64,000 nt of DNA from Breznakiellaceae bacterium (GTDB lineage: Bacteria; Spirochaetota; Spirochaetia; Treponematales; Breznakiellaceae). The notes under the pieces were generated by a model that was given only the letters and a program-made list of their open reading frames with translations, searched no databases and was not told where the DNA came from. A program made the position numbers and the translations under genes. The stretch is from the NCBI GenBank assembly GCA_964202565.1, contig CAXNJE010000001.1, positions 315 to 64,314 on the forward strand. The letters run 5' to 3'. Shown here in pieces: positions 14,201 through 57,108 of this stretch; within the stretch, counting starts at the first letter, position 1, and the number at the start of each line of letters is the position of its first letter.

Positions 14201-15135
14201 TTGTCCGGAGAAAACCGTTCATATTCATGCTCGAGTTCGCTGTATACATACGCGCGGGTGGGACCGGGGCCGGAGAATACCGGTTTCTCCTCTTCCTTCA
14301 CCATGTCCATGCTGGAAAGGAGCCGGATCAGGTATTCGCCGATCAACAGTCCCCAGCGTTTGCGCAGGAATTCAAGCTGCCCATTCAACGAAAAGGGCTC
14401 CGCAACCGCGGGGCTTCGCAGCAAATCCCATAAATTCAGTGTATCTGGTCCAAAACCGGGGAGTTTCGCGAAGTGTTCTTTCATCAGCTCGACCGCTTCG
14501 AGATAGCAACTAGCCACAGCCAGTTCTGAATCGTCGAAGAGTCTTTTGAAGGGACCGAACGCGGGGTTCGCATTGGCGAGGGTGAGCATCATCAGTTCTT
14601 CGATGGCGAGGGAACGGTTCGATTCGCCACCTTCACTGCCTTTCAGGTATTCCTCCGTGCTCATCCTGCCCGAATATACGGCTGCAGGAGGAAAGCGGTC
14701 GACAAAAGCGCGCAGGAGTGTTTCGGTTTTCCGGACACCCAGTTTCTTTTCAAAAGTATCCAGGAGTGAGGTGAAGGCGGAGGGCGAGACACGTTCCCGA
14801 TAGAGGGCAGCGACGTAATGCAGGATCTCGTCGATCAACCCCATCGCGTTCAGCTTTCCGGCCTTTACGTAACGTTCCGGATGGACAAGCGGATTCACCT
14901 TGCTGTTCAGCTTCTGGGCAAAAACGCGTGCGGCATGAAAATTCGTGAAAATTACGTTGCCCCTCAGGGCAAACAGCGTATCATCGAATCCGTGCTCGTC
15001 CCGGGCTGCGCGGCATACGTGGAATTCCATCGTAGCAGTCCTCAACCTTGCCAAAGGACCTATGGGTACCCTTTCCACCGTATCGAGAGGCCTTTCCAGA
15101 ATTTCTAGCTGCATTTCAAGCTTCATCGTTTTCAT
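11248..15135 (-). CDS. very large (1295 aa) GH13-like alpha-amylase-family glycoside hydrolase
   Basis: GH13 conserved regions read by eye: I DMVPNHTG, II IVRFDAAMTL, III LLLAEAFWM, IV FMNNPDED. Long N- and C-terminal extensions. Adjacent to malQ. Confidence 0.75.
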   Translation of the reverse strand: MKTMKLEMQLEILERPLDTVERVPIGPLARLRTATMEFHVCRAARDEHGFDDTLFALRGNVIFTNFHAARVFAQKLNSKVNPLVHPERYVKAGKLNAMGLIDEILHYVAALYRERVSPSAFTSLLDTFEKKLGVRKTETLLRAFVDRFPPAAVYSGRMSTEEYLKGSEGGESNRSLAIEELMMLTLANANPAFGPFKRLFDDSELAVASCYLEAVELMKEHFAKLPGFGPDTLNLWDLLRSPAVAEPFSLNGQLEFLRKRWGLLIGEYLIRLLSSMDMVKEEEKPVFSGPGPTRAYVYSELEHEYERFSPDKDWMPRVVLMAKSTLVWLSQLSRKYERTIDRLDLVPDEELDEMAQRGFTGLWLIGLWERSWTSKEIKRRSGNPEAAASAYSLNDYDIANELGSWQGMENLKMRCAWRGIRLGSDMVPNHTGIDSRWVIEHPERFLQTRQSPFPGYTFNGDNLCSRPGVGIYLEDHYWDKSDAAVVFKRVDFSSGDTRYIFHGNDGTSMPWNDTAQIDFLNPAAREAVIATIVGVCKQFPIVRFDAAMTLAKKHIQRLWYPEPGHGGDIAGRAEHALSREEFDKRMPNEFWREVVDRCAVEAPDTLLLAEAFWMMEGYFVRTLGMHRVYNSAFMNMLKNEENAKYRATIKNTLEFDPEILKRFVNFMNNPDEDTAVAQFGKGDKYFGVCTLMSTMPGLPMFGHGQLEGFEERYGMEYRRAYKDEIPDYQLIERHEREIFPLLKKRRLFSGSADFALYDFFGDGGVVNENIFAYSNRLGDERVLVLFNNNFERGSGWIRTSAPVAVKAKDGEKKMLVKTLSNALGLSSNAKNFTLFREQRSNLWYIRSSSQLAEKGIFVSINGYASQIFMDLHEIEDSDTGRWRRLCDELGGRGVPDLQSAFQDLFLRDLYAAYLDLATPTFFTAVSEMIAAACGNQKEEKAVKGKKGSGLTVSVPKPTTVIESFKDKVIRFALIAEEYLDGASGRYEAFERELPAKDMVAEDIWEEFSLSLQKLVKLAEYGTTPPASLSETGRALVAHAASVFGQRPETASFLAGYLTLALLRGIVGEGANGEDAQRLIDHWCIDRKLREMYQNIGVGADEAYRIVNLMKLVLSRTAPKAEAETIKPAKKSIKPESASESTKAKAETPLLQLVRSAFASNDVRSFMGVNVFEGVEWFNKERFDEALVYAGFAMAIEAEAAVSTMRKVPLKPDVTKKSKTEGNTEGKVAKGNALQTPKLDTGRWTKQLENIAHTLRVAEEAEARSGYRVDVFLAAMEKGLSDTTPEKAGKTKTPKA

Positions 15136-36085: not shown

Positions 36086-38254
36086 CTATTCTTTTGCGTT
36101 TGGAGGCCTGCGCCTGACTATGAATTCCTGCTTGGGCGCGTGTCTGGCGGCTTCGACCCCTTCCTTGACGGCTTCGTAGAGGCGTTCCTGGGCGCGGAAC
36201 GGTTCTTCGCCCTCAGGAGCATGTGCGAGGGTCCAGATGCCATCCGACCCGAGGGTACGGGCCCGGGAATCGTCCCGGAACCAGGTATCCAGGATATCGC
36301 CAATGCGCTTTTTCAGATCCTCATTCAATATGGGGAACATCAACTCTATCCTGCGCTCCAAATTGCGAGGCATCCAATCGGCGCTGGAAAGGAATAACTC
36401 TTCCGCGCCTCCGTTGGAGAATCGGAAAATCCTGGCGTGCTCCAGATAGCGGTCAATGATGCTCACCACCTGTATGTTTTCGGACATTCCGGGAACTCCG
36501 GGTATGAGCATGCAAATTCCGCGTATGTTCAGCCTGATTTTGACGCCGGCCCTGGACGCCCGGTACAGGGCGTCTATCACCTCGACATCCGCCAGGGAAT
36601 TCATTTTGGCGATGATCGAGCCTGGATACTCCTGGCTGGATCGTTTTGTTTCCCTTTCGATCAAGGCGATTATCCGGTGCTTCAATTCCGTTGGCGCTAT
36701 CACGAGCTTGCGCATATTCTGTACGGCCGAATAGCCGGTAACGATATTGAAGAAAATGTTGGTCTCGTAGGCTATTTCATCATTGGCGGTGATGATTCCC
36801 AGGTCGCCGTACAGGCGGGCGGTTTTATCGTTGTAATTCCCTGTCGACAGATGAACATAGCGCTTGACACCCTCCGCTTCCCGTCGGATGACGATGCAGG
36901 CCTTCGCGTGTACTTTGAGTCTGGCAATACCGTAAACCACGATGGCCCCGGCCTGCTCGAGTTGGGCTGCCCAGGCGATATTGCGGCTTTCGTCGAAGCG
37001 GGCTTTAAGTTCCACCAGAACCGTAACCTGCTTGCCATTCCTGGCAGCCAACTCCAAGGCCTTGATGATGGGCGAATCACCGCTGGTACGGTAGAGGGTA
37101 GCTTTTATCGCAAGAACGTGCGGATCTTTGGCAGCGTCGGAAAAGAAACGGATGACGGGTTCAAAGGACTCATACGGCAGGTGCAGGAGGATGTCCTGTG
37201 TTTTGATACGGTCCCAGAGTGGTTCATCTTCCGGCAGATCGGCGGGCCACCAGTTTTTCCAAGGTTTTTCCCGTAGGTAGTCGAAGCCCTTGGCCTGGCT
37301 CAGATCCATGAGGCTTCTCAGGTCTATGGGTCCCGGCATCGAATAGACGTCGTTCGGCTGCAAGCCCAGGCGCTTGCTTATTTCCCGTTCCAGAAGCGGG
37401 CTATCCGTGGAGATGGTTAGCCGCACCGGATGGGATTGCTCCCGTCCCACAAGGACTTCCTCCATGGCTTCCACAAAATCCTCGTCCCGTTCCTCGTCAA
37501 CGGAAAAATCGGCATCCCGGGTGACCTTGAAAAGGGTGGCTTCCTTGATCGTCCACCCGGGGAAAAGGCGGAAACCCCAAGTCATTACCACGTCATCCAG
37601 TAAAGTAAAGCAGGTTTTACCGCTCTCCTCGTGGGGTAACCATACGATCCTGTCCAGGTTAGGGGGGATCTGGACCACTGCAAGGCGTTTTGAGCCGCAA
37701 TCGGCAGCAAGGTCCTTTGCGACGGGACCGCAGGCGTCCGCGTCGTTGGGCTCGATAAGGAAGGCCGCGTTCATGCGCAGGTTGCCGGAGGAAGGGAATT
37801 GGGCGTTATCGTCTACCCGAAGTGGTGTAAGCACCGGAAAGACTTCCGTTATGAAAAGGTTTTCCAGGTACCGTTGCTGGCGTGCCGTGTACGAACCCGG
37901 GCGTACCAGTTCAAGCCCTTCCTTGGCCAAAGTAGGCAGCAACTCGTTCATGAGGCAGTCGTATTGTTGGCGCACTATCTGGCGGATGCGGTGGGATGCC
38001 GCTTTCAGCTGTTCGGAGGGTTTTAGACCTGAAGGATCAGCCCCGACTCCCGCACGATCGGCGCGCTTCAGGGCAGCGATCCGGACCATAAAGAATTCAT
38101 CAAAATTGGAGCTGACTATGGACAGGAATTTCAGGCGTTCCAGAGGGGGTAGTTCCGGCCTGAGCCCTTCTTCCAGCACGCGGGCGTTGAATTCGATCCA
38201 GGAAAGATCCCGGTTGAAATATCTTGCTTCCTGTTTTACCATCGCGACTGCCAT
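36086..38254 (-). CDS. ppk: polyphosphate kinase 1
   Basis: 722 aa with N-terminus YFNRDLSWIEFNARVLEE, autophosphorylation His context LKVHAKACIV, and two PLD-like domains. Confidence 0.9.
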   Translation of the reverse strand: MAVAMVKQEARYFNRDLSWIEFNARVLEEGLRPELPPLERLKFLSIVSSNFDEFFMVRIAALKRADRAGVGADPSGLKPSEQLKAASHRIRQIVRQQYDCLMNELLPTLAKEGLELVRPGSYTARQQRYLENLFITEVFPVLTPLRVDDNAQFPSSGNLRMNAAFLIEPNDADACGPVAKDLAADCGSKRLAVVQIPPNLDRIVWLPHEESGKTCFTLLDDVVMTWGFRLFPGWTIKEATLFKVTRDADFSVDEERDEDFVEAMEEVLVGREQSHPVRLTISTDSPLLEREISKRLGLQPNDVYSMPGPIDLRSLMDLSQAKGFDYLREKPWKNWWPADLPEDEPLWDRIKTQDILLHLPYESFEPVIRFFSDAAKDPHVLAIKATLYRTSGDSPIIKALELAARNGKQVTVLVELKARFDESRNIAWAAQLEQAGAIVVYGIARLKVHAKACIVIRREAEGVKRYVHLSTGNYNDKTARLYGDLGIITANDEIAYETNIFFNIVTGYSAVQNMRKLVIAPTELKHRIIALIERETKRSSQEYPGSIIAKMNSLADVEVIDALYRASRAGVKIRLNIRGICMLIPGVPGMSENIQVVSIIDRYLEHARIFRFSNGGAEELFLSSADWMPRNLERRIELMFPILNEDLKKRIGDILDTWFRDDSRARTLGSDGIWTLAHAPEGEEPFRAQERLYEAVKEGVEAARHAPKQEFIVRRRPPNAKE

Positions 38255-38256
38255 CC

Positions 38257-39795
38257 TTAGGTTATTACGACCCTGTATCCAAAAACGTCTTCGAACATAT
38301 CGGCTTTTTCTTCCATACCCAGGCGTTCGAGGGAAAGATCCTCATTGCCTTGGGTTCGGAGGACGATAGTATCCGATCTTTTTTCAAGTTCAATGGTTTT
38401 GATCCTTCGCGAATGACCCCGGTCCAAGGCATCGGCCACCCGCAGGATTGACGCAAGTTTGAGTACGATCATGCGTTCTTCCCGCTGGAGGGCGATATAG
38501 GCAATATGGGTGGAGTTTGGCGCTGATCGCCTGTGGTAGCGGACGACATTGGACACTACGTCCAAGTCGTCCCGGTGCAACCCGAAAATTTCCGAGTTTG
38601 CCACGATGTACTGGCTATGCTTGTGGTGTCCCGAACTCCGCAGATACATGCCTATATCGTGAAGGATTCCGGAGACTTCCAGCAGCAAACGCGCGCGCCT
38701 GTCCATGCCATGGTCCTCTTTGAGTGCATCGAAAAGCACCAGGGACAGGTGTGAGACGTGCAAGGCGTGGTCTTCGTCGAAATGATACTTGCGCCCCAGG
38801 CTAACGGCGGAAGCGATGACCTGGGAATAGAATTCTTCCAGCAGTTCGGGGTCCACTCCAGAGGCCATGTTGACGAGCATGCCCTCGCGTATGGAGACAT
38901 TGGGTACGATGATTTCGGTGGCGGCTGTCTGTTCCAGAAAAAGCTTGTAGGTGAGCAGGCCAGGAATGATGCCTTCGGCTTCCGCGAAGGGTATGCGCAG
39001 TTTCTGCACGCATTCTTCAATCGAGTACCCACGAATACGCTCCACGAAGCTCTCGAAGGCTTCACGGCGTATGAGTGCGCAGTTTTCGTTGATTTCCTCT
39101 CCCAGGCGGGCAGCTGCGAAGCGTGCATCCGAACCCGCGACGATGAAATTGCGTACATGGGTCAGATCAAGTTCGGAATTGAGTGTTTCGCAGGTGGTGC
39201 GCACGTGTTCTGCCAAAAAACGGAGCAGGTACTCGTTGGAACCGGTAGCCTGACGCACCTGCTGGTCAATAAGTATGGTTCCAAGGCGGATGCTGTGGGC
39301 GGCTACCATCTTGCCCCGCCGTAGCAGCATCATTTCAGTGGAGCCGCCGCCAACCTCGATGATTATCGAATTGGACCTGGAGAACTGGGGGTGGTCGTCT
39401 TTTATGGCATAGCGCACCGCCAGGTACATCAGCCGGTTTTCCTCGATACCCTCCACCACATTGATACGGAAACCGGTCTGTATCTGGACCCGGTCCATGA
39501 ATGAGTCACGATTGCGGGCTTCCCGCAAGGCGCTGGTGGCGATGACGCTGATGTCGTCATTCCCGATACCCCAACCCGAAAGGAGTTCGCGGAAACCATT
39601 CAGGACATTCAGACAATTGAGCAATGAATCCCTGGATACGAAGCCGCTGGTGAATACGTCGCGTCCCAGGGATACGGGTTTGCCTGCCCGGTCGACGATA
39701 CGCCAAATCCCGCCAGAGGCAATTTCCGCGACCACCATGCGAATGCCTGTCGAGCCGATCTCGACGACAGCGACAAGCCTTTTTTTATCCGGCAT
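38257..39795 (-). CDS. ppx: exopolyphosphatase (Ppx/GppA family) with C-terminal HD domain
   Basis: ASKHA-fold N-terminus VVEIGSTGIRMVV...IIEVGGGSTE, and the HD region ILHDIG. There is a 2-nt gap to the ppk start. Confidence 0.85.
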   Translation of the reverse strand: MPDKKRLVAVVEIGSTGIRMVVAEIASGGIWRIVDRAGKPVSLGRDVFTSGFVSRDSLLNCLNVLNGFRELLSGWGIGNDDISVIATSALREARNRDSFMDRVQIQTGFRINVVEGIEENRLMYLAVRYAIKDDHPQFSRSNSIIIEVGGGSTEMMLLRRGKMVAAHSIRLGTILIDQQVRQATGSNEYLLRFLAEHVRTTCETLNSELDLTHVRNFIVAGSDARFAAARLGEEINENCALIRREAFESFVERIRGYSIEECVQKLRIPFAEAEGIIPGLLTYKLFLEQTAATEIIVPNVSIREGMLVNMASGVDPELLEEFYSQVIASAVSLGRKYHFDEDHALHVSHLSLVLFDALKEDHGMDRRARLLLEVSGILHDIGMYLRSSGHHKHSQYIVANSEIFGLHRDDLDVVSNVVRYHRRSAPNSTHIAYIALQREERMIVLKLASILRVADALDRGHSRRIKTIELEKRSDTIVLRTQGNEDLSLERLGMEEKADMFEDVFGYRVVIT

Positions 39796-40769
39796 CAGGC
39801 ATTCCTGGCTAAAAGCGCTGCTCCCAGGGGCACTGCATCATCGCCCAGCGAGCCCACCAGGACTTGGACCTCGTTTATGACGCTCGGCATTGCATGCTCG
39901 CGCATCGTACTCAATACAAGGTCCAGGTAGCGTTCCTGCAGACGGTCTGCGAAACCGCCGCCGATAATGAAGGCCTCGGGATTAAGCAGCATCGCGATGC
40001 TCGCGAGCGCCACACCAAGGTGGAATGCGGAGCGGTCAACGATCTTGATGATATCCGGGTTGCCCTTTTCAAGGCCTTTCTCGAAGATCGAACTCTTGAA
40101 TTTGCGGAAATCGGTACCTGTCTTGTCTATCAGTTCCGGAAGATTCCCCGCCGCTGCCGCCGAAACCGCGTCCTTGGCCATCGCATTGCGGGAAGAAAAG
40201 GCTTCCAGGCAACCATATTGTCCGCACCCGCAGAGGGGTCCCCCTTCCTGTATTATGAGGTGCCCCACTTCGCCCGCCGAGCCCTTCCAGCCACGGTATA
40301 GTTTCCCGTCCAGAATAAGTCCGCCGCCTATACCGGTGCCCACGAAAACACCTACGACATGGCGCAGTCCCTTTGCCGCCCCCAGTTGGAATTCGGCCCA
40401 AGTCCCTGCGTTGACGTCATTCTCCATGAATACCGGGAGACCCAAGGCTTTCTCCAGGTTGGCGCGTAGGGGATAATCCTTAAGGTTGAGGTTGGTAAGG
40501 GTAACCGTGCCACGAACTGGATCCATGACGCCCGGAACCGCGGCACCGATGGCTTTCACTTTTTCCGGTGCCAGCCCGGCCTGTGCGCAGGCTTCCTGAA
40601 TGGTGGCCGCCATGGCTGCGGCTACCGCATCCGCACCCTCGTCACCCGGGGTCTTGCCTCGGGCCCTGGCTATGATGGTCCCATCGCCATCCACGAGGGC
40701 GGCAATCATTTTGGTGCCGCCCAGATCGAATCCGATATAGTACGCGTCATCTTTCATATCTTCAAGCAT
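39795..40769 (-). CDS. ROK-family glucokinase
   Basis: DLGGTK ATP motif and ROK zinc motif GHLI...CGCGQYGCLE. The stop overlaps the ppx start (TGATG). Confidence 0.8.
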   Translation of the reverse strand: MLEDMKDDAYYIGFDLGGTKMIAALVDGDGTIIARARGKTPGDEGADAVAAAMAATIQEACAQAGLAPEKVKAIGAAVPGVMDPVRGTVTLTNLNLKDYPLRANLEKALGLPVFMENDVNAGTWAEFQLGAAKGLRHVVGVFVGTGIGGGLILDGKLYRGWKGSAGEVGHLIIQEGGPLCGCGQYGCLEAFSSRNAMAKDAVSAAAAGNLPELIDKTGTDFRKFKSSIFEKGLEKGNPDIIKIVDRSAFHLGVALASIAMLLNPEAFIIGGGFADRLQERYLDLVLSTMREHAMPSVINEVQVLVGSLGDDAVPLGAALLARNA

Positions 40770-40823
40770 AGCTGAAAGTATGCGTATTATACAGGCCTCG
40801 GCAGCCCTGAAGAGTCTTTTGAA

Positions 40824-42248
40824 TCAGAGCTTGTCGATGAGCATGGAGCATTTCCCCGAAGGGATGGGAAGGGTTTTTTTCTTTTTTCCCAGAATGTTTA
40901 TGGTGAAGTAGTATAGTTTTTCGCTTTCCATGTGAATTTCCCAACCCCGACCGCTCTTGTTGGAAAGTATGGTTATCATATTCCGCTTGAGGGACAGATT
41001 CTCGATACCCATGATTTCCAGGTTGGGAATGATCCAATCCACCGTCTTTCGCGGCAGCGAGATTGAAAGTCCTACGATATTTTCTATCATGAGGCTGATC
41101 GTCGATAATCCCGCATAGGCAAGGTATTGGGGCCGGGGAAAATCTGCTTTGTCAGCCCGTTTTGCGGGACCTTCCTTTTTTGGAAGATACGCTTCCCAAA
41201 GGTTGCCCTTGTGGTGGTTCCCTTCGGGATTCATGGAGTCGAGGATATAGTATAAGTGGCGAATCGAGCATTCCCTCGCCAGGTCCCAGCGCTGGTACCT
41301 TTCCAGCCCCTTGATCACCATAAACGTAAAGGGCGGGATGACCGAGCCCCGATACCCGTTTCCGTCCGGGTCGAAGGAGGGTTCGTTCACGGCTACTGTG
41401 GGAAAAGGGTGTTCGGACCCGAAAAAGAGTGGGTCGCTGAGTTTGTCTATTATACGTTCGGCCTTGTCATCGTTGGGGAGTTCTGCCAGGAGCGGCCAAT
41501 AACCGGCTATTGTTTTGACCGGAATGCGCTTTTCGGCTTCATCCAGATCGTAGTAGAAGCCGGATTCGTTGTCCCACATCAGGGAGTTGATGCGGGTTTT
41601 TAGGGAGAAGTACAGGCGCTTGTACTGGAAGCTCGTTTCCTTGTCGTTAAGGATATCGCCCATGGCGGATATGTAGAGGGCATTTACGGCCATGGCTGAA
41701 TTGTAATCTACGTGATACACGGCTTTTTCGCGGGGGGCATTGTCCATTGAGGTGGCTGCGAGGGGAACCGCGTAAAGACCATTTGGCTGTTTGAAGGTCG
41801 CATCGATCCAGGCCATGTAACGCTGAAGTATGGGGAGAACATCTTTTACACGTTTCTTGTTGGCGGTCTTATGGTACAGGTTGAATTCAGCCCAAGCGAA
41901 AAGGGGCATGCCCAAGCCTTCCGGGTTGGAAGGGTCCGTAACAGGTATGCCGGTTTCGACATCGTAACGCCAGCGAATGGCTCCATTTGCCTCCTGTTTC
42001 TGGTAGAACAGGTCGAGCGTGGGATGGGCTTGGTATATCCTGTTGGAATACACAAGAAAAAAGGAGGAACAGATAGCGTCGAACTGATCGACTGTAGGAC
42101 TCCCGGGATACCCGAAGAACTTTCCTTCGAAGCCGCTTTCCTTTCCACCGGCAAGCCAGCAGTCTTGGATCCAGGCCCAGGTCCTATCGTATATATCCAC
42201 GAAATCCTGATCGTAAAAGTGGACTTTGGGAAAGTCGCGCTTCGTCAC
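40824..42248 (-). CDS. (alpha/alpha)6-barrel glycoside hydrolase, GH63/trehalase-like
   Basis: 474 aa with a GTG start preceded by GGAG. Motifs resemble GH63/GH37 six-hairpin enzymes (MWDNESGFYYDLD, TIAGYWPLLA, GYRGSVIPPFTFMVIKGL). Family call is by eye only. Confidence 0.55.
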   Translation of the reverse strand: MTKRDFPKVHFYDQDFVDIYDRTWAWIQDCWLAGGKESGFEGKFFGYPGSPTVDQFDAICSSFFLVYSNRIYQAHPTLDLFYQKQEANGAIRWRYDVETGIPVTDPSNPEGLGMPLFAWAEFNLYHKTANKKRVKDVLPILQRYMAWIDATFKQPNGLYAVPLAATSMDNAPREKAVYHVDYNSAMAVNALYISAMGDILNDKETSFQYKRLYFSLKTRINSLMWDNESGFYYDLDEAEKRIPVKTIAGYWPLLAELPNDDKAERIIDKLSDPLFFGSEHPFPTVAVNEPSFDPDGNGYRGSVIPPFTFMVIKGLERYQRWDLARECSIRHLYYILDSMNPEGNHHKGNLWEAYLPKKEGPAKRADKADFPRPQYLAYAGLSTISLMIENIVGLSISLPRKTVDWIIPNLEIMGIENLSLKRNMITILSNKSGRGWEIHMESEKLYYFTINILGKKKKTLPIPSGKCSMLIDKL

Positions 42249-42352: not shown

Positions 42353-42474
42353 ACAATTTCGCGTTCCGGAAGCGCTTTGTCCCGGATTAGCCATCCTGGC
42401 TCCAATTGCAACACCAGTTGGTGCGCCTTGACAGGCCCTGCGTGCACGCGCATAGTCCTGAGCAGGAGACCTCC

Positions 42475-44862
42475 TTGTACAAGTCCCATATCGCGCTGGA
42501 GGCGCGTATCCTTCTTTCAACCGACGTAAAAACTTTTTGTTCCTGCGCCGTCGGTGACGAAGGCCGGGGGGGGACCTGTCCTGTTTGTCGTGGTGAGGAA
42601 GGTGCGGTTCCTACCTTGAACGTGGATGCTGCCCGCAAGGCATATTTTGCCGTCCGGGCCTTGGCCTGTGAAATCGTCAAGGATCCTGTATACGAACGAA
42701 ACCTCAATACCCCCGAAATGCCGGAAGAACACACACTTTCCCGTCTGTCCCTGAAAATCGGAACAAATGGATGGATGGACATCACCTTCCACCGAAGGAA
42801 GAAACGCATCCGTATTGCGGAGATTCGGGTCGAGGAAGACGCGGGACGGCTCACCCACTCGGGTAACCAGACGCGCATGGAATATGCGAACGCCGGTATG
42901 CCCAGTCTGCGTATACGAACGGAAGCGGATTTCGAGATTGGAGAGGAAGCCGAAGTTTTCCTGTCCGATTTAAGGCGCCGCATCCAATATCTTGAAATTA
43001 TTCCGGGGGTGCCCCTGGAAAGCGTTATACGATGCAATGCGCATGTCTCGATTGCGGCCTACCCCGAGGAACCCACCGATTTCGTCAAGCTCCGGAACCT
43101 CAATTCCTTCAACTTTGTCCGAAAAGCGGTCAATGTCGAACTTGGGCGCCAGGAAGATATCCTTTCGAACGGCGGTTCCATCGTTCCCGAAAGCCGCATC
43201 TGGAATGAAACCAGGAATCAGACCGAGGCTTTCCAGAAACGCAGTCCGGAATCACGGACCAGATTCGAGCCTGTGGCCGGTATTCCGACCTTCCCGCCGG
43301 ATCCGGTAGTGCTCGAAGCCCTGGACGCCTTTACGGTGGAGCTGCCGGAGGCACGCAGGGATCGGCTGGCGGCTCAGTACGGTCTTACTTTGGCCCAGGC
43401 CGAATTTGTGTGCGACGAAAAGAGCCGGGCGGATTATTTTGAGCAGGCAGTTACCGCAGGGGCCGCTCCGAAAGAGCTTGCCCACTGGTTGTCCACCTTC
43501 ATCGTCAAGGAATTCAAGCGCCTGCAACTGACACCGGCCTCGGCTTCCCTCACACCGGAACGGACGGCCGAACTATTGCGCATGCTTTCGGACCGGCGCA
43601 TACACGGGGGAATAGCCAAGCAGGCCATCGTTGCAGGATTGGAGTCCGGCCGCGATCCGGCTGAAATAGTGCGCGAGCGTGGTTGGGAACAGGTTACCGA
43701 CCGGGTCCTTATCCAGACTTTGGCCCGTTCCATCGTTGCCGCCAACCCGAAGGAAGTACGGCGGGTGCGCGAGGGGGATGCCCGGCCAATACGTTTTCTT
43801 ACCGGCCGGATCATGCAGGAAACCAACGGACTCGCGGAACCTACCCTGGTAAAGGAAATCCTCCGCGAGGAATTATCCGTCTCGCTCGTGTACGTGCTGG
43901 CTATGGGTGGCGCTATATCGGGCAGGTACGGGGAAGAGGGTACGGTAGAAAGCGGCGACGAACGGGTGTTGCGGGAACTGCTTAACGGCTGGGACGCCCC
44001 TTCGGGTATCCGCTTCGAACAGGTGCAGGTGGGCCGTTCGCTCTCGGAAGAGATAGTACCGGCCGACTGGGCTACCCTGATTACGGCGATTTCTGACAAG
44101 CTCAATTCCGGAACGGCCAACGGAATTGTGGTAACCCACGGAACCGACACGCTGGCCTACACGGCACCCCTGCTCTATTGGCTTTTTGCGGACGCCAACG
44201 CTCCTGTTGTCCTGGCTGCGTCATCTGCCCCACCGGGAAATTCCAGCGAGGCAGCCGAAACCCTGCGCCGGGCGGTGGCACTCGCCGTGGAAAAGAAGTC
44301 GGGTGTCTACGTCGTATACGGTTCGCAGGTCTTGTCCCCGATGAACCTTAAATTTGAACGGATCGGCCTTCATGCCTTCCGGAATTGGAACATGGACTCA
44401 TCCATCTTTACAGGAACATCCTTGTTGTCAGGCCCGCTGGAAGCCGACCGATATGTTTTGGCACAATTGCTTGAGGATGCGGTCAATTCCTTGTGCATTA
44501 TTCGGGTGTACCCGGGTTTGCGTCCCGACTATTTGATATCCCTTATGGACTTGGGGGTACGGAATTTTTTTCTGGAACTATACGATACGGGGACAGCGAA
44601 CCTTCGGGACGGCCCCTATTCCCTCAGAAGGGCTTTCTCCGCTGGTAAAAAGAAGGGTGTCCGTTTCTTCTGCAGCTCCCAACAGGAAGGTTCGGTGGAT
44701 TTCTCGGTCTATTCAAGTTCCCGGGAACTATGGAAGGAAGGCGCCATCCCCTTGGGCAGCATGGCTACAGAAACAGCCGTAACCCGATTCCTGGCTGCCA
44801 GCATCATCGCCGATAGCGATGAGGAATTGGTGGAACTTATGGATTGTACCGGTTCGGAATAA
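42475..44862 (+). CDS. fusion protein: GatB/GatE-like amidotransferase module + YqeY-like tail + L-asparaginase (GatD-like) domain
   Basis: N-terminal part: TFCSC...CPVC zinc-ribbon-like insert, EIRVEEDAGRL, IRCNAHVSI, LRNLNSFNFV, and the tail FLTGRIMQETNG. C-terminal part: VVTHGTDTLAYTAP, the asparaginase signature. Probable TTG start at 42475, 5 nt after AGGAGA; the ORF is open from 42406. Confidence 0.7.
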   Translation: MYKSHIALEARILLSTDVKTFCSCAVGDEGRGGTCPVCRGEEGAVPTLNVDAARKAYFAVRALACEIVKDPVYERNLNTPEMPEEHTLSRLSLKIGTNGWMDITFHRRKKRIRIAEIRVEEDAGRLTHSGNQTRMEYANAGMPSLRIRTEADFEIGEEAEVFLSDLRRRIQYLEIIPGVPLESVIRCNAHVSIAAYPEEPTDFVKLRNLNSFNFVRKAVNVELGRQEDILSNGGSIVPESRIWNETRNQTEAFQKRSPESRTRFEPVAGIPTFPPDPVVLEALDAFTVELPEARRDRLAAQYGLTLAQAEFVCDEKSRADYFEQAVTAGAAPKELAHWLSTFIVKEFKRLQLTPASASLTPERTAELLRMLSDRRIHGGIAKQAIVAGLESGRDPAEIVRERGWEQVTDRVLIQTLARSIVAANPKEVRRVREGDARPIRFLTGRIMQETNGLAEPTLVKEILREELSVSLVYVLAMGGAISGRYGEEGTVESGDERVLRELLNGWDAPSGIRFEQVQVGRSLSEEIVPADWATLITAISDKLNSGTANGIVVTHGTDTLAYTAPLLYWLFADANAPVVLAASSAPPGNSSEAAETLRRAVALAVEKKSGVYVVYGSQVLSPMNLKFERIGLHAFRNWNMDSSIFTGTSLLSGPLEADRYVLAQLLEDAVNSLCIIRVYPGLRPDYLISLMDLGVRNFFLELYDTGTANLRDGPYSLRRAFSAGKKKGVRFFCSSQQEGSVDFSVYSSSRELWKEGAIPLGSMATETAVTRFLAASIIADSDEELVELMDCTGSE

Positions 44863-44883: not shown

Positions 44884-45576
44884 TTAGTTGCGTGGGGGCG
44901 AAAGCTTTTCCGCGTTATCATTCATCGCTGTCCATGTCATGGTCAATGCTCCCGAGGGCATACGTTCCACTTTCAGGCAGTAAACCCGACAATTCCCGCA
45001 TGACACCAGCGGAAACCAGGTTTGCGTACCAAAGGTAGTTCTGAAAAGCCATTGCAGGAAACCTGCGTGGCTCACCGCGATGACCCTGCGCACCCCTTCG
45101 TGGGAACCGGAGATTTCGGCATCCCGCAGAAGTTCCCAGGCAGACATTGCCCTCTCGAAGAGAACCTTGGATTTTTCCGCACCCTCAACGCCTTCCCAGC
45201 TTTCGTGATGGAAGCGATCCCAGGCATCCGGTTCATTTTCCTTTATTTCATGCCAGCTTCGTCCGGTAAAATTACCTGTCTCAAGCTCAATGAGCCTGTC
45301 AGACGTGATAGGACTGTCTAACCGGGCTTCCTTGGCTATGAGTTCGGCCGTTTCCCGAGCCCTTGCCAAGGGGGAACAGAACAGAACCGTATTCGGATTT
45401 CCCGAAAGGGCTTTGCCTGCCTGCTCGGCCTGCTTCCTGCCCTTCGCGGAAAGAGGATAATTCTTGCGACCCTGAAAAATTCCTGCGGTATTTCCTTCGC
45501 TTTCGCCATGCCGCAACAACAGGAATTCAGTAGTCTGGGTCAGGTTCCCAAAAAAGTCCGTATCGGCGATTCTCAT
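44884..45576 (-). CDS. histidine phosphatase family protein (phosphoglycerate mutase-like)
   Basis: RHG motif LLLRHGESEGN and downstream SPL.RA. The start overlaps the stop of the upstream gene by 1 nt. Confidence 0.8.
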   Translation of the reverse strand: MRIADTDFFGNLTQTTEFLLLRHGESEGNTAGIFQGRKNYPLSAKGRKQAEQAGKALSGNPNTVLFCSPLARARETAELIAKEARLDSPITSDRLIELETGNFTGRSWHEIKENEPDAWDRFHHESWEGVEGAEKSKVLFERAMSAWELLRDAEISGSHEGVRRVIAVSHAGFLQWLFRTTFGTQTWFPLVSCGNCRVYCLKVERMPSGALTMTWTAMNDNAEKLSPPRN

Positions 45577-47363
45577 CAGTACACGATCCGGATGTGCTCG
45601 GTCGGGTTCCGATGCTTGATCTTCAGCATGAGCGTCTGTTCGGATTGGGAATAAGCCCAGCCGGAGGAATCGTAACGCTCAAAACGGGGGTCGGTACGGA
45701 AGTCGATACCGTACAGCTGGATTTTCACGAAGGGCTTAACGCCCCGTACGAGCAGGTAATGGGTGGTACCAACCGGGAAATCCGTCGCAATATCGATGGC
45801 GTTCCCATCCCGAGCAGCGCGGATCGGGGCGCCGGTCCATATCCAGATACTGGTTGCCGTATCCAACTGGAACGGCACCGTGCGGGGAAGCAGGTCCTCA
45901 GGATGCAAAAACCTGTAAATCCGGGAAGCGGGAATGCGTTGGCCATCAGCCGGCACCGGTGTGGCGGCACCGGCAGGCAAGGAAAGCCGTGTAGGAAGTG
46001 TCGCGCTGGCGTCTGCCAGGGAGAGGGCGGAAACTATGAGGCTTCGTCCGATATTTTCCCAAGCCTTGTTTTTCGTTTCACCCATGGCTTTGATCAAAGC
46101 CCGTCCCGCGCGGAGATTGAAGACTGAATCGGCCGTGTCATTTTCGACAAGGAATACCCGGTCATCCTGAGTCTTCCGTAGGAGGCCCGAGAACACGAAA
46201 AGGGATTGATCCTCCAGCCGGTCAAAAGGATTTTCCTGGTTTGGTCGGATCCTTTTCCAGTCCTTCGAGTATTCAAGAAATCCTGCGGCCTGGCGGGGCG
46301 TCATGGCGGTAGGATCGAAGCTAAGGGTAAAAGCGGCGATCGCATCAAGAAGCGTGCGGTTTCCACGCACATCCAGATAGGAGATCAGGTCGGGTTCGAT
46401 GAACAAGGCCGGATCGCGCTCATTTACCATTTTTGACAAACGCCCGAGCGTGTCGCGTTCTGCGGCGGCGTAGGTCCTCAAGCCCTGGTCCAAGCGGCCA
46501 AAGTAGACTGCGGACCGGTATGTACGATCGGTACCGTCCAAAAAGGCCTTTGGCACGCCGGCCACGGCCCCCCGATAATTTCCGCGCCTGGACGATTCGG
46601 CGGTATAGGTGACGACCGAATCTTCATCCGGAGTTTCAGCCATGGATCGTTCCCAATCTACGAAAGCGGTATCCGTCCATTGCTGGACAATCCTATTATA
46701 GGAAGCCGCATCACTCGCGGCGGCGATCGAGAAGTCCGCGGGATCGAAGCCTTTCTTGGCTACGAATTTTCCGTAGGCGAAGGTGGGGGAGGTTGAATTC
46801 AGTATGATAGCCCGCTTGTCGTTGTCGATTTTGCCGGATAGAACAAAGGATTCTCCCGCAACAATCAAGCTGGGTTTACCTTCAATAGCCTCTCCAGACC
46901 GTGCGGAACGAAGCGGACGGAATGGAAGGCGCAATTCGGTGACGCCTTTAGGAAACGCAGCCCGGGCTTGAAGCAATTCCTCGCCATCGACGAACTCTGT
47001 CATGAAACTGAGTTGTGTGCCATCCTCCAGGACGATGCGCACTGCGTTGTTTTCGTTTTCAAAAGAAGCCGGAGCGATCGGTCGGGGCGCGGTATTCCCC
47101 TTGACCGATGCCAGACCCTCGTTGCCTGCGAGCCGGAATTCCATGCCATTGAAAAAGACAGCCAAGGGACCAACCAGTTTCCGTCCCGCTTTGGATTGCC
47201 CTTTCGCATCGCCACCTTTTGCGTACTTTCCGCTGACTGTCAGGGACCCGATAGTCATCGTAAAACCCGTATTATTGGAGAACTGAACCAGCGCCAAGCC
47301 TAGCGCAACAGCAAGATATGCGGTGACGACGATGAATCCGCGTCGGAATGGATGTCTTTTCAT
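45576..47363 (-). CDS. hypothetical membrane-anchored protein (595 aa)
   Basis: A single N-terminal TM/signal anchor (FIVVTAYLAVALGLALVQF). No recognisable catalytic motif. Confidence 0.5.
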   Translation of the reverse strand: MKRHPFRRGFIVVTAYLAVALGLALVQFSNNTGFTMTIGSLTVSGKYAKGGDAKGQSKAGRKLVGPLAVFFNGMEFRLAGNEGLASVKGNTAPRPIAPASFENENNAVRIVLEDGTQLSFMTEFVDGEELLQARAAFPKGVTELRLPFRPLRSARSGEAIEGKPSLIVAGESFVLSGKIDNDKRAIILNSTSPTFAYGKFVAKKGFDPADFSIAAASDAASYNRIVQQWTDTAFVDWERSMAETPDEDSVVTYTAESSRRGNYRGAVAGVPKAFLDGTDRTYRSAVYFGRLDQGLRTYAAAERDTLGRLSKMVNERDPALFIEPDLISYLDVRGNRTLLDAIAAFTLSFDPTAMTPRQAAGFLEYSKDWKRIRPNQENPFDRLEDQSLFVFSGLLRKTQDDRVFLVENDTADSVFNLRAGRALIKAMGETKNKAWENIGRSLIVSALSLADASATLPTRLSLPAGAATPVPADGQRIPASRIYRFLHPEDLLPRTVPFQLDTATSIWIWTGAPIRAARDGNAIDIATDFPVGTTHYLLVRGVKPFVKIQLYGIDFRTDPRFERYDSSGWAYSQSEQTLMLKIKHRNPTEHIRIVY

Positions 47364-51305: not shown

Positions 51306-51581
51306 TTACCAGCGGGAATTGCTCTCGCGGCGGGGTTTGTCCATCGCTTCGTTCACTTTGAGCTGGCGACCGTCGTACTCGCGGCCGTTGGTTCCGGCGA
51401 TGGCAGCGCGTGCCTCGTCATCGGTGCTCATTTCCACAAAGCCGAAGCCTTTGGAGCTTCCGGTGTCGCGGTCGGTGATGATCTTGACTGATTCTACATT
51501 GCCGTACGCGGCGAAGAGGTTACGAAGACCGTCCTCGTAGGTGTTGTAGCTGAGGTTTCCGACATAGAGTTTCTTGGCCAT
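51306..51581 (-). CDS. RRM-type RNA-binding protein
   Basis: RNP2 LYVGNL and RNP1 KGFGFVEM. 91 aa. Confidence 0.85.
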   Translation of the reverse strand: MAKKLYVGNLSYNTYEDGLRNLFAAYGNVESVKIITDRDTGSSKGFGFVEMSTDDEARAAIAGTNGREYDGRQLKVNEAMDKPRRESNSRW

Positions 51582-51958: not shown

Positions 51959-52258
51959 TTACCAGCGGCCGCCGTAGCCACCACCACCACCGGAGTCACG
52001 ATCGCGACGGGGCTTGTCCATGGCCTCGTTTACGCGGAGCTGGCGACCATCGAGCTCTTGACCGTTGGCACCGGCAATAGCTGCGCTCGCTTCCTCATCC
52101 GTGCTCATCTCGACGAAGCCGAAGCCTTTGGAGCTACCGGTGTCGCGATCGAAAACGATCTTGGCAGACATAACATTACCGAAACCCGAAAAAAGGTTGC
52201 GGAGTCCGTCCTCGGAGGTGTTGTAGGAGAGGTTACCGACGTAAAGTTTCTTGGCCAT
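51959..52258 (-). CDS. RRM-type RNA-binding protein with glycine-rich tail
   Basis: RNP2 LYVGNL, RNP1 KGFGFVEM, and a C-terminal SGGGGGYGGRW. Paralogue of the gene at 51306-51581. Confidence 0.85.
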   Translation of the reverse strand: MAKKLYVGNLSYNTSEDGLRNLFSGFGNVMSAKIVFDRDTGSSKGFGFVEMSTDEEASAAIAGANGQELDGRQLRVNEAMDKPRRDRDSGGGGGYGGRW

Positions 52259-54621: not shown

Positions 54622-54651
54622 TTGACTTGCGAAGAAATCCGATCGTATCCT
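54622..54651 (+). promoter_or_regulatory. candidate promoter of the adenylate cyclase gene, leaderless geometry
   Basis: TTGACT-18 nt-TATCCT, with the ATG at 54658 lying 6 nt after the -10 hexamer. Confidence 0.4.
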
Positions 54652-54657
54652 ATTGGG

Positions 54658-57108
54658 ATGGAACGGACAGATTATCGCCTGGCGGCCATCCTTTATACGG
54701 ATATTGCCGGCTTCTCGAAAATGATGGAAAAAAACGAGGCTCTCACCCTTGAGTTGCTCCAGAAACACAACGACATAATCGAGGCTATCGTCGCAAAGAA
54801 GGGCGGTACGGTCATAAAGACCATAGGCGACGCCTTTCTGATCGATTTTCGGAATACCGTGGATGCCCTGCAGAGCGCCATTGACATCCAGTATCAGCTG
54901 TATGAGTACAATAAACTGCACCCGGAATTGCCCTTGCTGGTGCGTATCGGGGTACATCTGGGGGATATTTATTTCTACAAGAACGATGCCTTGGGTGAGG
55001 GGATCAATATCGCGGCGAGGCTCCAGTCCGTAGCACATCCGGGCTGCATCTGCATGTCCCACGATGTCTATAACCATGTGCTCAACAAGGTGGAGTTCAA
55101 GGCAGAGAAACTGGGACGGGTAAGTCTGAAGAATATTACCAAGGAAATACATGCCTACGAAATAGCGACGCCGAATATCGAGTTTGATCCCAATCGGGAT
55201 GCCCGGACGATACTGATACCCGACAAGGAAGAAAAAGCCGCATCCGAGACCGCCCTCGCAGCCTTGGTTCCTGCAGGTGGCGGACAAACGGCTACCATAA
55301 CGGCTGCCAAGCCCAGGGTAACACGAAAAGCGACCAAGACTTCCAGCGCCGGAGCAACGCCCCCGGATGTGTCGAATATTGCTGAAACCTCCGGTAGCGC
55401 CAGCGAAGCAAGTATTGCAGGCGAAAAGCAGAAACAGAAGCCCCTTGACGAGGATGCCCGGGCCAAGGACATCAAACGCCGGATAATGCTGGACATCAAA
55501 TCCGCCGGCAGGCGTCTGGGTGTGGACCAGATGCGCATACGTTACCGATCCGAAGGACAGCTGGCGATTTCGGTTATAGAAGATCTGGCGGCCAAGGGTT
55601 TTCTTCTTGGGGATGAGATTCCTTCGGAGGAATCGACCGAAAGTCCGGACTTGCGGGATGATATTGTACACACCGTAAACACCTTGGAGTATAGGATAGA
55701 GGACGAAATTCGCCGTGGCTTGAACGCGGCCTTTGCCCACCGGCGACAACGCCATGATGGGCGGGATGTCCGCGAAGAAATAAAGGTGAGGGTGCGGGGC
55801 CTGAAGGACGAAGTTGATGAGGATCGCCGTGGAGCCGGCAAGTGGGAACGCCGTTTGGACAAGTCGCGCTTCCGGAGCGCGGCGGACGGGCTGGTGGATT
55901 ATGAAAAATACGCGAAGAAAACCCGCAGCGAGGCCAGCTCCTCGATCGCCGGTTTTGTCGGTCACGCACTGAGTTTCATCGCTGTAAATGGTGTTCTTAT
56001 GGCCATCAACGCCTCCACCAGTCCCGGCTTCCCCTGGGCGCTCTTTCCTTTGGGTGGTTGGGGAATAGGTTTGCTTGAGCACCTGGTTTCGGTGATGAGA
56101 AAGACTGAAAAAGCCAAGGACCTGAAACACCTCCCCGAGCTGGATCCTGAGAAGCTCGAACTTTTTAAATCATTGCAGAAGAAAAAAGACGGATTCTGGA
56201 TGCACCTGTCATCCACCCTGACGACAACCTGCTTCCTGGCAGCCATAAACCTGATCACCTCACCCGGTTTCCTTTGGTTCCTGATTCCCGGCATAGGAAT
56301 GGCCATAGGTCTTTTCACCCATGCCGCTAGCTACGCCATGAAAAAGTCGGAACTGGAAAAAAGCCTGCTGGAATCCTTTGGTCTGAGCGGTTCCTGGGCT
56401 GGCGCGTTAAGGAATATGCCGGCTACGGCCAAGGTAGCGCCGGAAGATCTTGGACCCTACCAGCCCTTGGTTGACGAGGCCAAGGCCATACGCCTGTCCA
56501 TCATCGCGCAGACGGGAACGGGTTCGACCTCGGAGGCGGCAAAAAAAGGGAAAGGCACCCGCGCGGGCGAGAAAGGAAAGAACGTGAAAGGCAAGGGAGC
56601 TTCGTCCGGTTTCGGTGCGGCTTGGGATGGGGATCTTCTGCCCACGCTGGATTCGTACGTCGAACAAATCGGCCTGCTTGCGAAGCGGACCTACGAGGTA
56701 GACAGGATCATCGACCTGATTCCCATGGATGCGTTGGGAAAGGACAAGGCCGACCTGGCCCTGAAAATGGAAGAAGCTGTGGGCGTGGGGCTGAAAAAGG
56801 AATACGAAAAATCGCTGGCAGAGATTGAAAAGCAGGAAAAATCCTTTGCCGAATTGAAGGAACAACAGGAACTCATGGAATTGAGGCTCCGATCGTCGGT
56901 GAACACCATGAAGCAGATGCGCATAGACCTGGCCCGACTGTCCGGCATGCCCGCCGGGGGCGAAAACGCCCCGCTGAATGCCATCCGTGATAAAACGGTG
57001 GAGCTAAACCACTATTTGGATGATTTGAAAGCGGGCTACGAGGAATTGGACCGGCTGGAAGCCTTGGCTCTTCCCGCAGCCGTTGGCGGGGATGAGGAAG
57101 AGGATTAG
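54658..57108 (+). CDS. class III adenylate/guanylate cyclase fused to two 2-TM modules and a C-terminal coiled coil
   Basis: Cyclase motifs AILYTDIAGFS, KTIGDAFL and GEGINIAARL. Two homologous hydrophobic pairs (AINASTSPGFPWALFPLGGWGIGLLEH and AINLITSPGFLWFLIPGIGMAIGLFTH). Confidence 0.8.
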   Translation: MERTDYRLAAILYTDIAGFSKMMEKNEALTLELLQKHNDIIEAIVAKKGGTVIKTIGDAFLIDFRNTVDALQSAIDIQYQLYEYNKLHPELPLLVRIGVHLGDIYFYKNDALGEGINIAARLQSVAHPGCICMSHDVYNHVLNKVEFKAEKLGRVSLKNITKEIHAYEIATPNIEFDPNRDARTILIPDKEEKAASETALAALVPAGGGQTATITAAKPRVTRKATKTSSAGATPPDVSNIAETSGSASEASIAGEKQKQKPLDEDARAKDIKRRIMLDIKSAGRRLGVDQMRIRYRSEGQLAISVIEDLAAKGFLLGDEIPSEESTESPDLRDDIVHTVNTLEYRIEDEIRRGLNAAFAHRRQRHDGRDVREEIKVRVRGLKDEVDEDRRGAGKWERRLDKSRFRSAADGLVDYEKYAKKTRSEASSSIAGFVGHALSFIAVNGVLMAINASTSPGFPWALFPLGGWGIGLLEHLVSVMRKTEKAKDLKHLPELDPEKLELFKSLQKKKDGFWMHLSSTLTTTCFLAAINLITSPGFLWFLIPGIGMAIGLFTHAASYAMKKSELEKSLLESFGLSGSWAGALRNMPATAKVAPEDLGPYQPLVDEAKAIRLSIIAQTGTGSTSEAAKKGKGTRAGEKGKNVKGKGASSGFGAAWDGDLLPTLDSYVEQIGLLAKRTYEVDRIIDLIPMDALGKDKADLALKMEEAVGVGLKKEYEKSLAEIEKQEKSFAELKEQQELMELRLRSSVNTMKQMRIDLARLSGMPAGGENAPLNAIRDKTVELNHYLDDLKAGYEELDRLEALALPAAVGGDEEED

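Follow-up and report, generated by a model that had tools for sequence, protein, structure and literature searches.

The locus studied here raises the question of what is left of a GatB protein when an asparaginase-like domain is fused to its end and catalytic residues are missing from both halves. The gene lies at 42475..44862 on the forward strand of a 64,000-nucleotide stretch of DNA from an uncultured Breznakiellaceae bacterium (assembly GCA_964202565.1, contig CAXNJE010000001.1, positions 315 to 64,314), which is called the window throughout. It encodes a GatB-like::asparaginase-like protein of 795 amino acid residues, begins with TTG and was delimited by Pfam matches and full-length homologues (the coordinates include the stop codon). 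Set beside its relatives, the gene turned out to derive from a fusion that occurs in many Spirochaetia, to be orphaned from its partner genes at the locus and to have a GatB pocket of inverted charge.

The domain structure was analysed with Pfam, where GatB_N matched residues 6-268 (E 5.5e-40), GatB_Yqey residues 320-467 (E 4.9e-33) and Asparaginase residues 472-639 (E 5.2e-26). Asparaginase_C was matched at residues 675-788 with 28.9 bits, under its cut-off of 34.6 bits. An AlphaFold2 model of the protein (mean predicted local distance difference test score, pLDDT, 79.5) was then compared with known structures by Foldseek. The N-terminal 470 residues matched GatB chains with template modelling (TM) scores of 0.73-0.80, normalised to the target, and the remainder matched type I asparaginases (TM 0.72-0.78) and GatD (TM 0.56). 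A first-pass annotation made by eye had assigned the first ~480 residues to GatB and the last ~330 to an asparaginase, and both assignments are borne out. When the NCBIfam models were applied, the window protein was found below the curated cut-off of all GatB, GatD, GatE and asparaginase models. The best GatB score was 311.2 bits with NF004012 (cut-off 338), and TIGR00133 gave 258.9 bits (cut-off 314.8). The GatD model NF003217 reached 95.4 bits against a cut-off of 310 and covered the asparaginase core only; a GatD N-terminal domain is not present. The GatE models gave 56 and 22 bits, showing that the partner module is of the GatB type and not of the GatE type.

The cradle, which is the catalytic domain of GatB, comprises residues 1-290 (42475..43344, forward strand; delimited by alignments to 3h0l_B, 3al0_B and 2df4_B) and is remodelled. 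Its residues were read from a HMMER alignment to the GatB proteins of A. aeolicus, T. maritima and S. aureus, and canonical positions are given in S. aureus numbering. In the window protein, His12 is replaced by Arg11 (42505-42507), Glu150 by Arg146 (42910-42912), Asp192 by Asn188 and Glu210 by Lys205 (43087-43089). Lys79 of the RKNYFYPD loop is deleted and the loop reads YER-NLNTPE. Other changes are H122R, K129R, V152R, N194H and K212R (R207). Glu10 (as Glu9), Glu124 and Glu125 of the EEDAG motif (Glu120 and Glu121) and the cysteines of the Zn ribbon are kept. The Mg2+ ligand set His12/Glu124/Glu150 corresponds to Arg11/Glu120/Arg146, with two of the three being Arg, and among the residues E10, K79, D192, N194, S196, E210 and K212 of the ATP and second-metal pocket and the Lys79 loop only E10 and S196 are retained. 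All the substitutions read by eye in the GatB half (ALEARILL with its His lost, YERNLNTPE, and PSLRIR with its Glu lost) were recovered in the profile alignment together with the further changes, and neither the catalytic His, Lys and Glu of GatB nor the Thr nucleophile of the asparaginases is present. In GatE, the replacement of any one Mg ligand by Ala abolishes the kinase and the transamidase activity (PMC2330236), and the equivalent ligands of yeast GatB are H36, E156 and E186 (PMC4027206). As the window protein is missing two of its Mg ligands, the Lys79 loop and the residues for ATP and the second metal, the sequence makes it very unlikely that aminoacyl-tRNA is phosphorylated or amidated by it.

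Full-length fusions were detected down to 28% identity in an exhaustive profile-free search, and their alignment gave two kinds, which we named groups A and B. The window protein belongs to group B, which spans at least 71 species of the Treponemataceae and relatives. Its close homologues (58-94% identity) are from Treponema primitia, Breznakiella homolactica and metagenome-assembled genomes (MAGs) of Termitinemataceae, Treponemataceae and Spirochaetaceae. The members of the group include termite-gut Treponema MAGs, Treponemataceae, Gracilinema caldarium, Candidatus Treponema caballi and Spirochaetales MAGs. Complete genomes with a group B gene are those of T. primitia ZAS-2, B. homolactica and G. 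caldarium DSM 7334 and the MAG chromosomes OY762953.2 and OW818665.1. With one genome scanned for each GTDB species, 239 genomes were seen to encode a relative, and the best 80 loci were fetched. In total, 89 loci and the window were searched by tblastn for GatC, GatA, the non-discriminating AspRS and the flanking genes, and the key residues were read from the alignment. None of gatC, gatA and aspS was found within 10 kb in ~73 group B loci. This survey of distribution and neighbourhood separated group A with gatCA and aspS from group B, which is without them at the locus.

The substitutions of the window protein are a property of the whole of group B. At the positions H12/K79/H122/E150/V152/D192/N194/S196/E210/K212, the group reads R/N or gap/R/R/R or K/N/Y or H/A/K/R, and this pattern was observed in all 73 group B loci examined, with single exceptions. 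R11 is fixed to 100% and R146, K205 and R207 to 99% each. When the window protein was aligned with its 120 closest homologues, R11 and A480 were invariant and R146 was found in 118 of the 121 sequences. About 10 near-universal pocket residues of GatB are replaced and fixed. Canonical GatB has a mean net cradle charge of -7.2 and group A one of -9.2, against +0.6 for group B. A neighbour-joining tree built on the GatB part recovered group B as monophyletic in 100 of 100 bootstraps with a long stem, and the group was sister to the group A fusions P0124 and P0132 and to P0144, a protein of unfused length (67/100).

The constraint on each position was compared between 104 group A and 73 group B sequences. 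In the 290 residues of the cradle, 20 positions were conserved in both groups with different residues, 45 had lost constraint in group B and 3 had gained it. The corresponding numbers were 0, 4 and 3 for the helical domain, 1, 0 and 0 for the tail and 2, 0 and 18 for the asparaginase-like domain, giving totals of 23, 49 and 24. In addition, 145 positions were invariant in both groups. The positions without constraint in group B include the whole RKNYFYPD...YQISQ loop, the DYRYFPEPDL loop and the PN...G.PG.LP segment. The RKNYFYPD...YQISQ and DYRYFPEPD loops reportedly line the ammonia channel between GatA and GatB. The ratio of nonsynonymous to synonymous substitution rates (dN/dS) was determined for 10 independent close pairs of group B and was 0.00-0.21 for the cradle, 0.03-0.22 for the helical domain with the tail and 0.02-0.14 for the asparaginase-like domain. 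All parts of the protein, including the rebuilt cradle, are under strong purifying selection.

Group A consists of canonical GatB proteins that carry the same additional domain. Among the 119 closest relatives of the S. thermophila GatB (64-75% identity), 91 were fusions of ~800 residues, 26 were unfused and 2 were of intermediate length. All 91 fusions keep the canonical GatB residues and the named ones are annotated plainly as GatB. The motifs GLEIHxQ, RKxYFYPD, HLEEDAGK, PLLEIVTEPD, RCDANIS and EIKNLNS are kept, and P0132 passes the GatB equivalog cut-off with 559.5 bits (cut-off 338). In all 13 group A loci, gatA is located upstream, preceded by gatC where the contig reaches, and the pocket residues are canonical. 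A downstream aspS was absent only in L004, where the contig ends 84 nt past the gene. The operon in L001 and L003 consists of a response regulator, gatC, gatA, gatB::asparaginase-like and a class IIb synthetase, which was identified with NCBIfam as an aspartate--tRNA(Asn) ligase, that is, a non-discriminating AspRS (476 and 504 bits, cut-off 353). The deep group A loci L008 and L009 are linked to gatA and an aspS-like gene, and L008 also to gatC. Examples are found in Alkalispirochaeta sp. and in the Spirochaetaceae bin59 chromosome CP070696.1. The unfused state is represented by the S. thermophila locus with a glycoside hydrolase, gatC-gatA-gatB-aspS and, further along, ppx-ppk, where GatB has 474 residues, and by a Rectinemataceae MAG with a gatA-gatB-aspS core and a GatB of 472 residues in different surroundings. 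P0144 (JGI, on a 4-kb contig) has 497 residues, that is, unfused length, with canonical residues, and the tree places it with the fusion P0124; either it lost the asparaginase-like domain secondarily or its gene call is truncated.

The group A fusions resemble the window protein in their four-part architecture, the short linker, the motifs GGA, LSEE, HGTDT, NLKF, LELYDTGTA and CTSQQE and the chromosomal position beside an MGH1-like glycoside hydrolase and ppx-ppk. Unlike the window protein, they have the canonical catalytic residues of GatB, pass the equivalog cut-off and are flanked by gatC-gatA and a non-discriminating aspS. The first-pass annotation had taken the fusion for a rare arrangement in which the two archaeal GatDE polypeptides are joined in one chain. 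This did not hold, because the fusion serves many Spirochaetia as their ordinary GatB (91 of the 119 nearest relatives) and, in the 13 loci examined, is encoded beside gatA and a non-discriminating aspS. A single-chain amidotransferase of the GatDE kind was rejected, since the nucleophile is missing even in relatives with a GatA and the module is of the GatB and not of the GatE type.

The fusion genes of groups A and B are found at the same chromosomal position with the glycoside hydrolase neighbour conserved in both. In the window, the conserved flanking block that was used for positional orthology (36086..42248, Pfam) lies entirely on the reverse strand and consists of the polyphosphate kinase gene ppk (36086-38254), Ppx/GppA (38257-39795), a ROK kinase (39795-40769) and the MGH1-like glycoside hydrolase (40824-42248). 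The same genes flank the group A operons in L001 and L003, namely an opposite-strand MGH1-like glycoside hydrolase, ROK, ppx and ppk. Across spirochaetes, the ppk - ppx/gppA - ROK block keeps its synteny with the gatB locus (window 36086-40769, reverse strand; L001, L003, L090). In group A it is located downstream and on the same strand as the operon, whereas in group B it is upstream, inverted and adjoins the glycoside hydrolase. This difference in position and strand indicates that a rearrangement accompanied the loss of gatCA and aspS. The ppk-ppx adjacency is also found at canonical GatB operons and thus reflects inherited synteny. A functional tie to ppk-ppx-ROK, with polyphosphate as the phosphoryl donor for the Arg-lined pocket, was set aside because the canonical GatB operons share the adjacency.

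These comparisons suggest a path in which the ancestral spirochaete locus would have contained the glycoside hydrolase, gatC-gatA-gatB-aspS with a non-discriminating aspS and, further along, ppx-ppk, and the operon would have served the tRNA-dependent synthesis of Asn-tRNA and probably also of Gln-tRNA. A type I asparaginase-like domain without its Thr would then have been added to the C-terminus of GatB in many Spirochaetia, the enzyme otherwise remaining a canonical GatCAB, as in group A. In the lineage related to the Treponemataceae, gatC, gatA and aspS would later have been lost from the locus. In this step the cradle pocket would have been rebuilt, with the metal and ATP ligands changing to Arg, Lys and Asn, and the Lys79 and DYRYFPEPD loops would have lost their constraint, resulting in group B.

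The type I asparaginase-like domain comprises residues 469-795 (43879..44859, forward strand) and was delimited by alignments to the Thermococcus and Pyrococcus asparaginases and by its fold match. Ala480 (43912-43914) occupies the position of the Thr nucleophile in the GGT hairpin, which reads GGAISG. The HGTDT motif (44137-44151; T557, D558) and Lys626 (44350-44352) are kept, so that T557/D558/K626 correspond to the triad T89/D90/K162 in the numbering of E. coli AnsB. The equivalent of Ser58 (Ser524) is also kept and invariant. The alignment agrees with the earlier reading by eye of a substituted nucleophile motif, MGGAI, beside a retained HGTDT. Motifs specific to this family, LSEEI.P.DW, SPLNLKFE, LELYDTGTA and C(T/S)SQQE, were found in both groups.

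Ala was observed at the nucleophile position in all 120 closest homologues of the window protein and in 90 of the 91 group A fusions, and these 90 also have S-E-E, HGTDT and K/R. As the domain is without the Thr in group A while GatA coexists, it does not take the place of GatA as an ammonia source of the GatD type, and it appears to have lacked the Thr nucleophile from its origin. Thr at this position together with the equivalents of T89, D90 and K162 was found in one subclade of group B (~17 loci, ~50% identical to the window protein: L057-L061, L063, L065-L068, L071-L073, L075, L077 and L078), which has the charge-inverted GatB pocket like the rest of the group. Ser was found in L005, L006 and L070. 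The toggling between Ala, Thr and Ser across the clades is evidence against a nucleophile that is essential. As to the substrate, the residues that hold its alpha-carboxylate and alpha-amino groups are kept. Two of the structures matched by the fold, 5dnc and 7c8x, are Thr-to-Ala asparaginase mutants deposited as Asn-bound complexes, which shows that Thr-to-Ala variants can hold a ligand without hydrolysing it.

A second asparaginase was seen in the group A locus L008 (JGI metagenome 3300017992), where a protein of 655 residues with Asparaginase and Asparaginase_C domains is encoded at 4276-6243, directly 5' of gatC-gatA-gatB::asparaginase-like-aspS. Here HGTDT (at residue ~183) precedes TGGTID (at residue ~305). 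This order suggests a permuted or duplicated asparaginase with a Thr nucleophile, and the protein might pair with the Thr-less domain that is fused to GatB.

The helical domain (residues 291-405) and the YqeY tail (residues 406-468) of GatB are encoded at 43345..43878 on the forward strand (Pfam GatB_Yqey). In S. aureus GatB, the residues M452, G457, A459 and P461 form the tail pocket that binds the D-loop of the tRNA (PMC2811023). Neither canonical GatB nor group B varies at the corresponding residues (M447, G452, A454 and P456 of the window protein), in keeping with a tRNA-binding role that was retained. The first-pass annotation had concluded that the protein may be a non-canonical or inactive tRNA-binding module. 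The loss of transamidase activity is supported by the two Arg at the three Mg ligand positions, the GatB scores below cut-off and the Ala at the nucleophile position, and the binding of tRNA is in line with the invariant tail pocket.

With moderate confidence, we favour the reading that the window protein is a retired GatB that would have been kept as a non-catalytic protein binding tRNA and a ligand. Constraint was lost only outside the tail and the asparaginase-like domain and was kept or strengthened within them, so the retained function is most likely one that these parts already had in group A. The present protein would neither phosphorylate or amidate aminoacyl-tRNA nor hydrolyse Asn or Gln. 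Most likely, the helical domain and the YqeY tail would bind tRNA, and the pseudo-asparaginase domain would contribute a role of its own. It is plausible that this domain binds an amino acid but leaves it unconverted. As asparaginases and GatD form dimers, the pseudo-asparaginase domain plausibly dimerises as well. In the cradle, the new Arg and Lys residues may form pairs with Glu9, Glu120 and Glu121, which are retained, and take up the space of the old metal sites, the cradle staying a folded scaffold; alternatively, they may line a new anion-binding pocket. The protein could act in the cell as a sensor, a sequestration factor or a chaperone for tRNA-Asn or tRNA-Gln species.

Several observations weigh against a retired GatB that binds tRNA and a ligand. 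The region of the 3-10 turn, which reads the U1-A72 pair of the acceptor stem, carries a conserved insertion of two residues in group B, and in the tail the motif G(K/R)A(N/D)P, which is rich in Lys, is weakened to GLAEP. Through these two changes the specificity or the affinity for tRNA may be altered. Asparaginase activity is possible in the Thr-bearing subclade of group B, to judge from its residues. Since group B is one clade, the correlation between the residues and the neighbouring genes reflects a single evolutionary transition. The fixed Arg and Lys residues and the strong selection on the cradle (dN/dS, omega, ~0.1) would be just as compatible with a new function in catalysis or ligand binding, beyond that of a scaffold.

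This last point is the basis for a neofunctionalised enzyme, which we consider possible if unlikely. Here Arg11, Arg146 and Lys205 would bind the free side-chain carboxylate in place of Mg-ATP, and the protein would hydrolyse or sequester mischarged species as a trans-editing or quality-control factor needed after the loss of GatCA, or would act on another anionic or phosphorylated substrate. The almost perfect fixation of the replaced residues (R11 100%, R146, K205 and R207 99%) and a purifying selection on the cradle that is as strong as on the other domains agree with this. A general base could be provided by the retained Glu9, Glu120 and Glu121, the tail pocket for tRNA is kept, and the shift of the cradle charge by a net +10 would suit an anionic ligand. 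However, 45 otherwise invariant cradle positions lost constraint, which looks more like dismantling than re-tooling, and the element that recognises U1-A72 is altered. We know of no precedent for hydrolytic chemistry in the GatB fold, which also counts against this explanation, and no gene for a partner or substrate is linked in the neighbourhood. The asparaginase-like domain could instead be the business end, either as an unusual amidohydrolase or as a high-affinity sensor of Asn, Asp or Gln, with the GatB part as a tRNA-responsive regulatory module. T557, D558, K626 and the Ser524 equivalent are invariant, 18 constrained sites were gained in this domain in group B, its dN/dS is the lowest in most pairs and one subclade has Thr at the nucleophile position. 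There is also the case of GatD, which is switched on by the binding of tRNA to GatE (PMC2330236). We nevertheless regard this explanation as improbable, because Ala stands in the place of the nucleophile in the window protein, most of group B and 90 of the 91 group A fusions, and because a change between Ala, Thr and Ser across the clades is not expected of an essential nucleophile. In addition, the hairpin is without the conserved Tyr after this position and Asparaginase_C is under the Pfam cut-off.

It is highly improbable that a working GatCAB still has this protein as its B subunit, with gatC and gatA moved elsewhere in the genome and an Arg-assisted, metal-poor mechanism. The domain order and the EEDAG motif are kept, the absence of gatA and gatC was established for the window and the 10-kb flanks, and the JGI pipelines label homologues as subunit B. 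But two of the three Mg ligands, K79, D192 and E210 are lost, the near-invariant RKNYFYPD...YQISQ and DYRYFPEPD loops lost constraint, the protein is below all curated GatB cut-offs and NCBI names the homologues only 'asparaginase domain-containing protein'. A weak hint in the same direction is that no 'Treponema sp.' GatA was found among the 120 best relatives of a spirochaete GatA from group A. That search and one with the S. thermophila GatB gave no proteins with names of group B taxa among the best 120, both lists being saturated by closer relatives. A non-functional relic nearing its loss is hardly credible: although the catalytic residues are lost in both halves and the locus no longer has the partner genes of the operon, the full-length reading frame is intact in at least 71 species, dN/dS is ~0.1 in every domain, which effectively refutes this explanation, and the substituted residues themselves are fixed.

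We conclude that the fusion of GatB with an asparaginase-like domain is a widespread and apparently undescribed architecture in Spirochaetia, and that the Treponemataceae and their relatives apparently hold a conserved lineage of pseudo-GatB. In literature searches, no paper describing the GatB::asparaginase-like fusion was found, nor one describing the amidotransferase genes of T. primitia. The window protein shares with bacterial GatB (S. aureus 3ip4_B/2f2a_B, A. aeolicus 3h0l_B, T. maritima 3al0_B) the order of cradle, helical and YqeY domains, 29-31% identity and TM scores of 0.7-0.8, but it differs in the extra C-terminal domain of 330 residues, the two-residue insertion at the 3-10 turn and the absence of gatC and gatA at the locus. 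With the type I L-asparaginases (Pyrococcus, Thermococcus, E. coli AnsA) and archaeal GatD it shares the two-domain fold, the Thr-Asp-Lys triad and the Ser58 equivalent. Unlike these proteins, it has Ala for the nucleophilic Thr, and it has no GatD N-terminal domain and is fused to a GatB-type module instead of being paired with GatE. Precedents for a GatB-derived piece that was kept as a tRNA-binding module are the C-terminal YqeY domain of D. radiodurans GlnRS, there non-catalytic (PMC1865053), and the N-terminal domain of eukaryotic GlnRS (PMC3333875). In these cases only helical or tail parts are grafted on a synthetase, whereas the window protein is a whole free-standing GatB including the cradle, plus the pseudo-asparaginase.

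A partner of the asparaginase type, GatD, has counted as a hallmark of the archaea (PMC2811023, PMC2330236). In many Spirochaetia, a GatD-like asparaginase fold forms part of the ordinary GatB encoded within gatCAB-aspS operons, and the role of a Thr-less asparaginase domain in a working transamidosome is now a testable question. In group B, the subunit of an essential translation enzyme was not lost after the pathway had been dismantled at the locus; its pocket was rebuilt with basic residues, and at least 71 species, among them cultivable termite-gut treponemes, maintain the subunit under strong purifying selection. The series offers a natural case of a pseudoenzyme arising, or of neofunctionalisation, in aminoacyl-tRNA biology, for which the ancestral, intermediate and derived states are all extant. 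It is a speculative and rather doubtful idea that the GatB::pseudo-asparaginase was repurposed, after the dismantling of the pathway in the Treponemataceae lineage, as a new aminoacyl-tRNA factor, in one version by coupling tRNA binding to amino-acid sensing. If true, it would add a class not known before to the proteins of translational quality control or sensing. For metabolic reconstructions, the label 'amidotransferase subunit B' given by the JGI pipelines could wrongly imply an indirect pathway to Asn-tRNA and Gln-tRNA.

The open reading frame of the gene, counted from the first possible start, runs without interruption over 818 codons (42406..44862, forward strand). The TTG at 42475 is almost certainly the true start. 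It was also called on an ENA contig (assembly ERZ27280308) with an identical 795-residue protein, the N-terminus MYKS... is that of the homologues too, and a Shine-Dalgarno-like AGGAGA (42464..42469, forward strand, read from the sequence) lies 5 nt 5' of it. The first-pass description of one uninterrupted frame with this start behind AGGAGA is upheld by the independent gene call and the homologue N-termini. A stop or frameshift that would split it into two genes does not exist, as the frame is intact in hundreds of homologues; together with the dN/dS of ~0.1, this also rules out a sequencing artefact, a frameshift or a pseudogene. Further upstream, TTGACA-17-CATAGT matches the sigma-70 promoter consensus in 10 of 12 positions (42428..42456, forward strand), a consensus match only. 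The upstream region was tested for a leader RNA such as a T-box or riboswitch, but gave no Rfam match and folded like shuffled sequences (z = 0.23). Inside the coding region, a sub-threshold Rfam match to the Fibrobacter-1 small RNA was seen in antisense (43232-43335, reverse strand; 29.5 bits, gathering cut-off 77.9, E 0.002), which is most likely due to chance.

The neighbours of the fusion gene in the window are the divergent glycoside hydrolase and a convergent histidine phosphatase. No operon partner that would explain the function was found at the window locus, and the downstream neighbours vary among the group B loci. Canonical gatCAB, asnS, glnS and tRNA genes were not found in the 64-kb window. 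Three large open reading frames of the window have no Pfam match, at 11248-15135 (1295 residues), 9944-11212 (422 residues) and 45576-47363 (595 residues), all on the reverse strand. In the group B locus L005, a protein of 621 residues, also without a Pfam match, is encoded convergently with the fusion at the position of the 595-residue frame, the likeness being one of size and position only. The genes called on the ENA contig with the identical fusion protein place two small RNA-binding proteins with an RRM_1 domain (window 51306-51581, 91 residues, and 51959-52258, 99 residues, both on the reverse strand) ~6.5 kb downstream of the fusion. Finally, an adenylate/guanylate cyclase catalytic domain, two 2TM domains and DUF6320 occur together in a protein of 828 residues at 54622-57108 on the forward strand.

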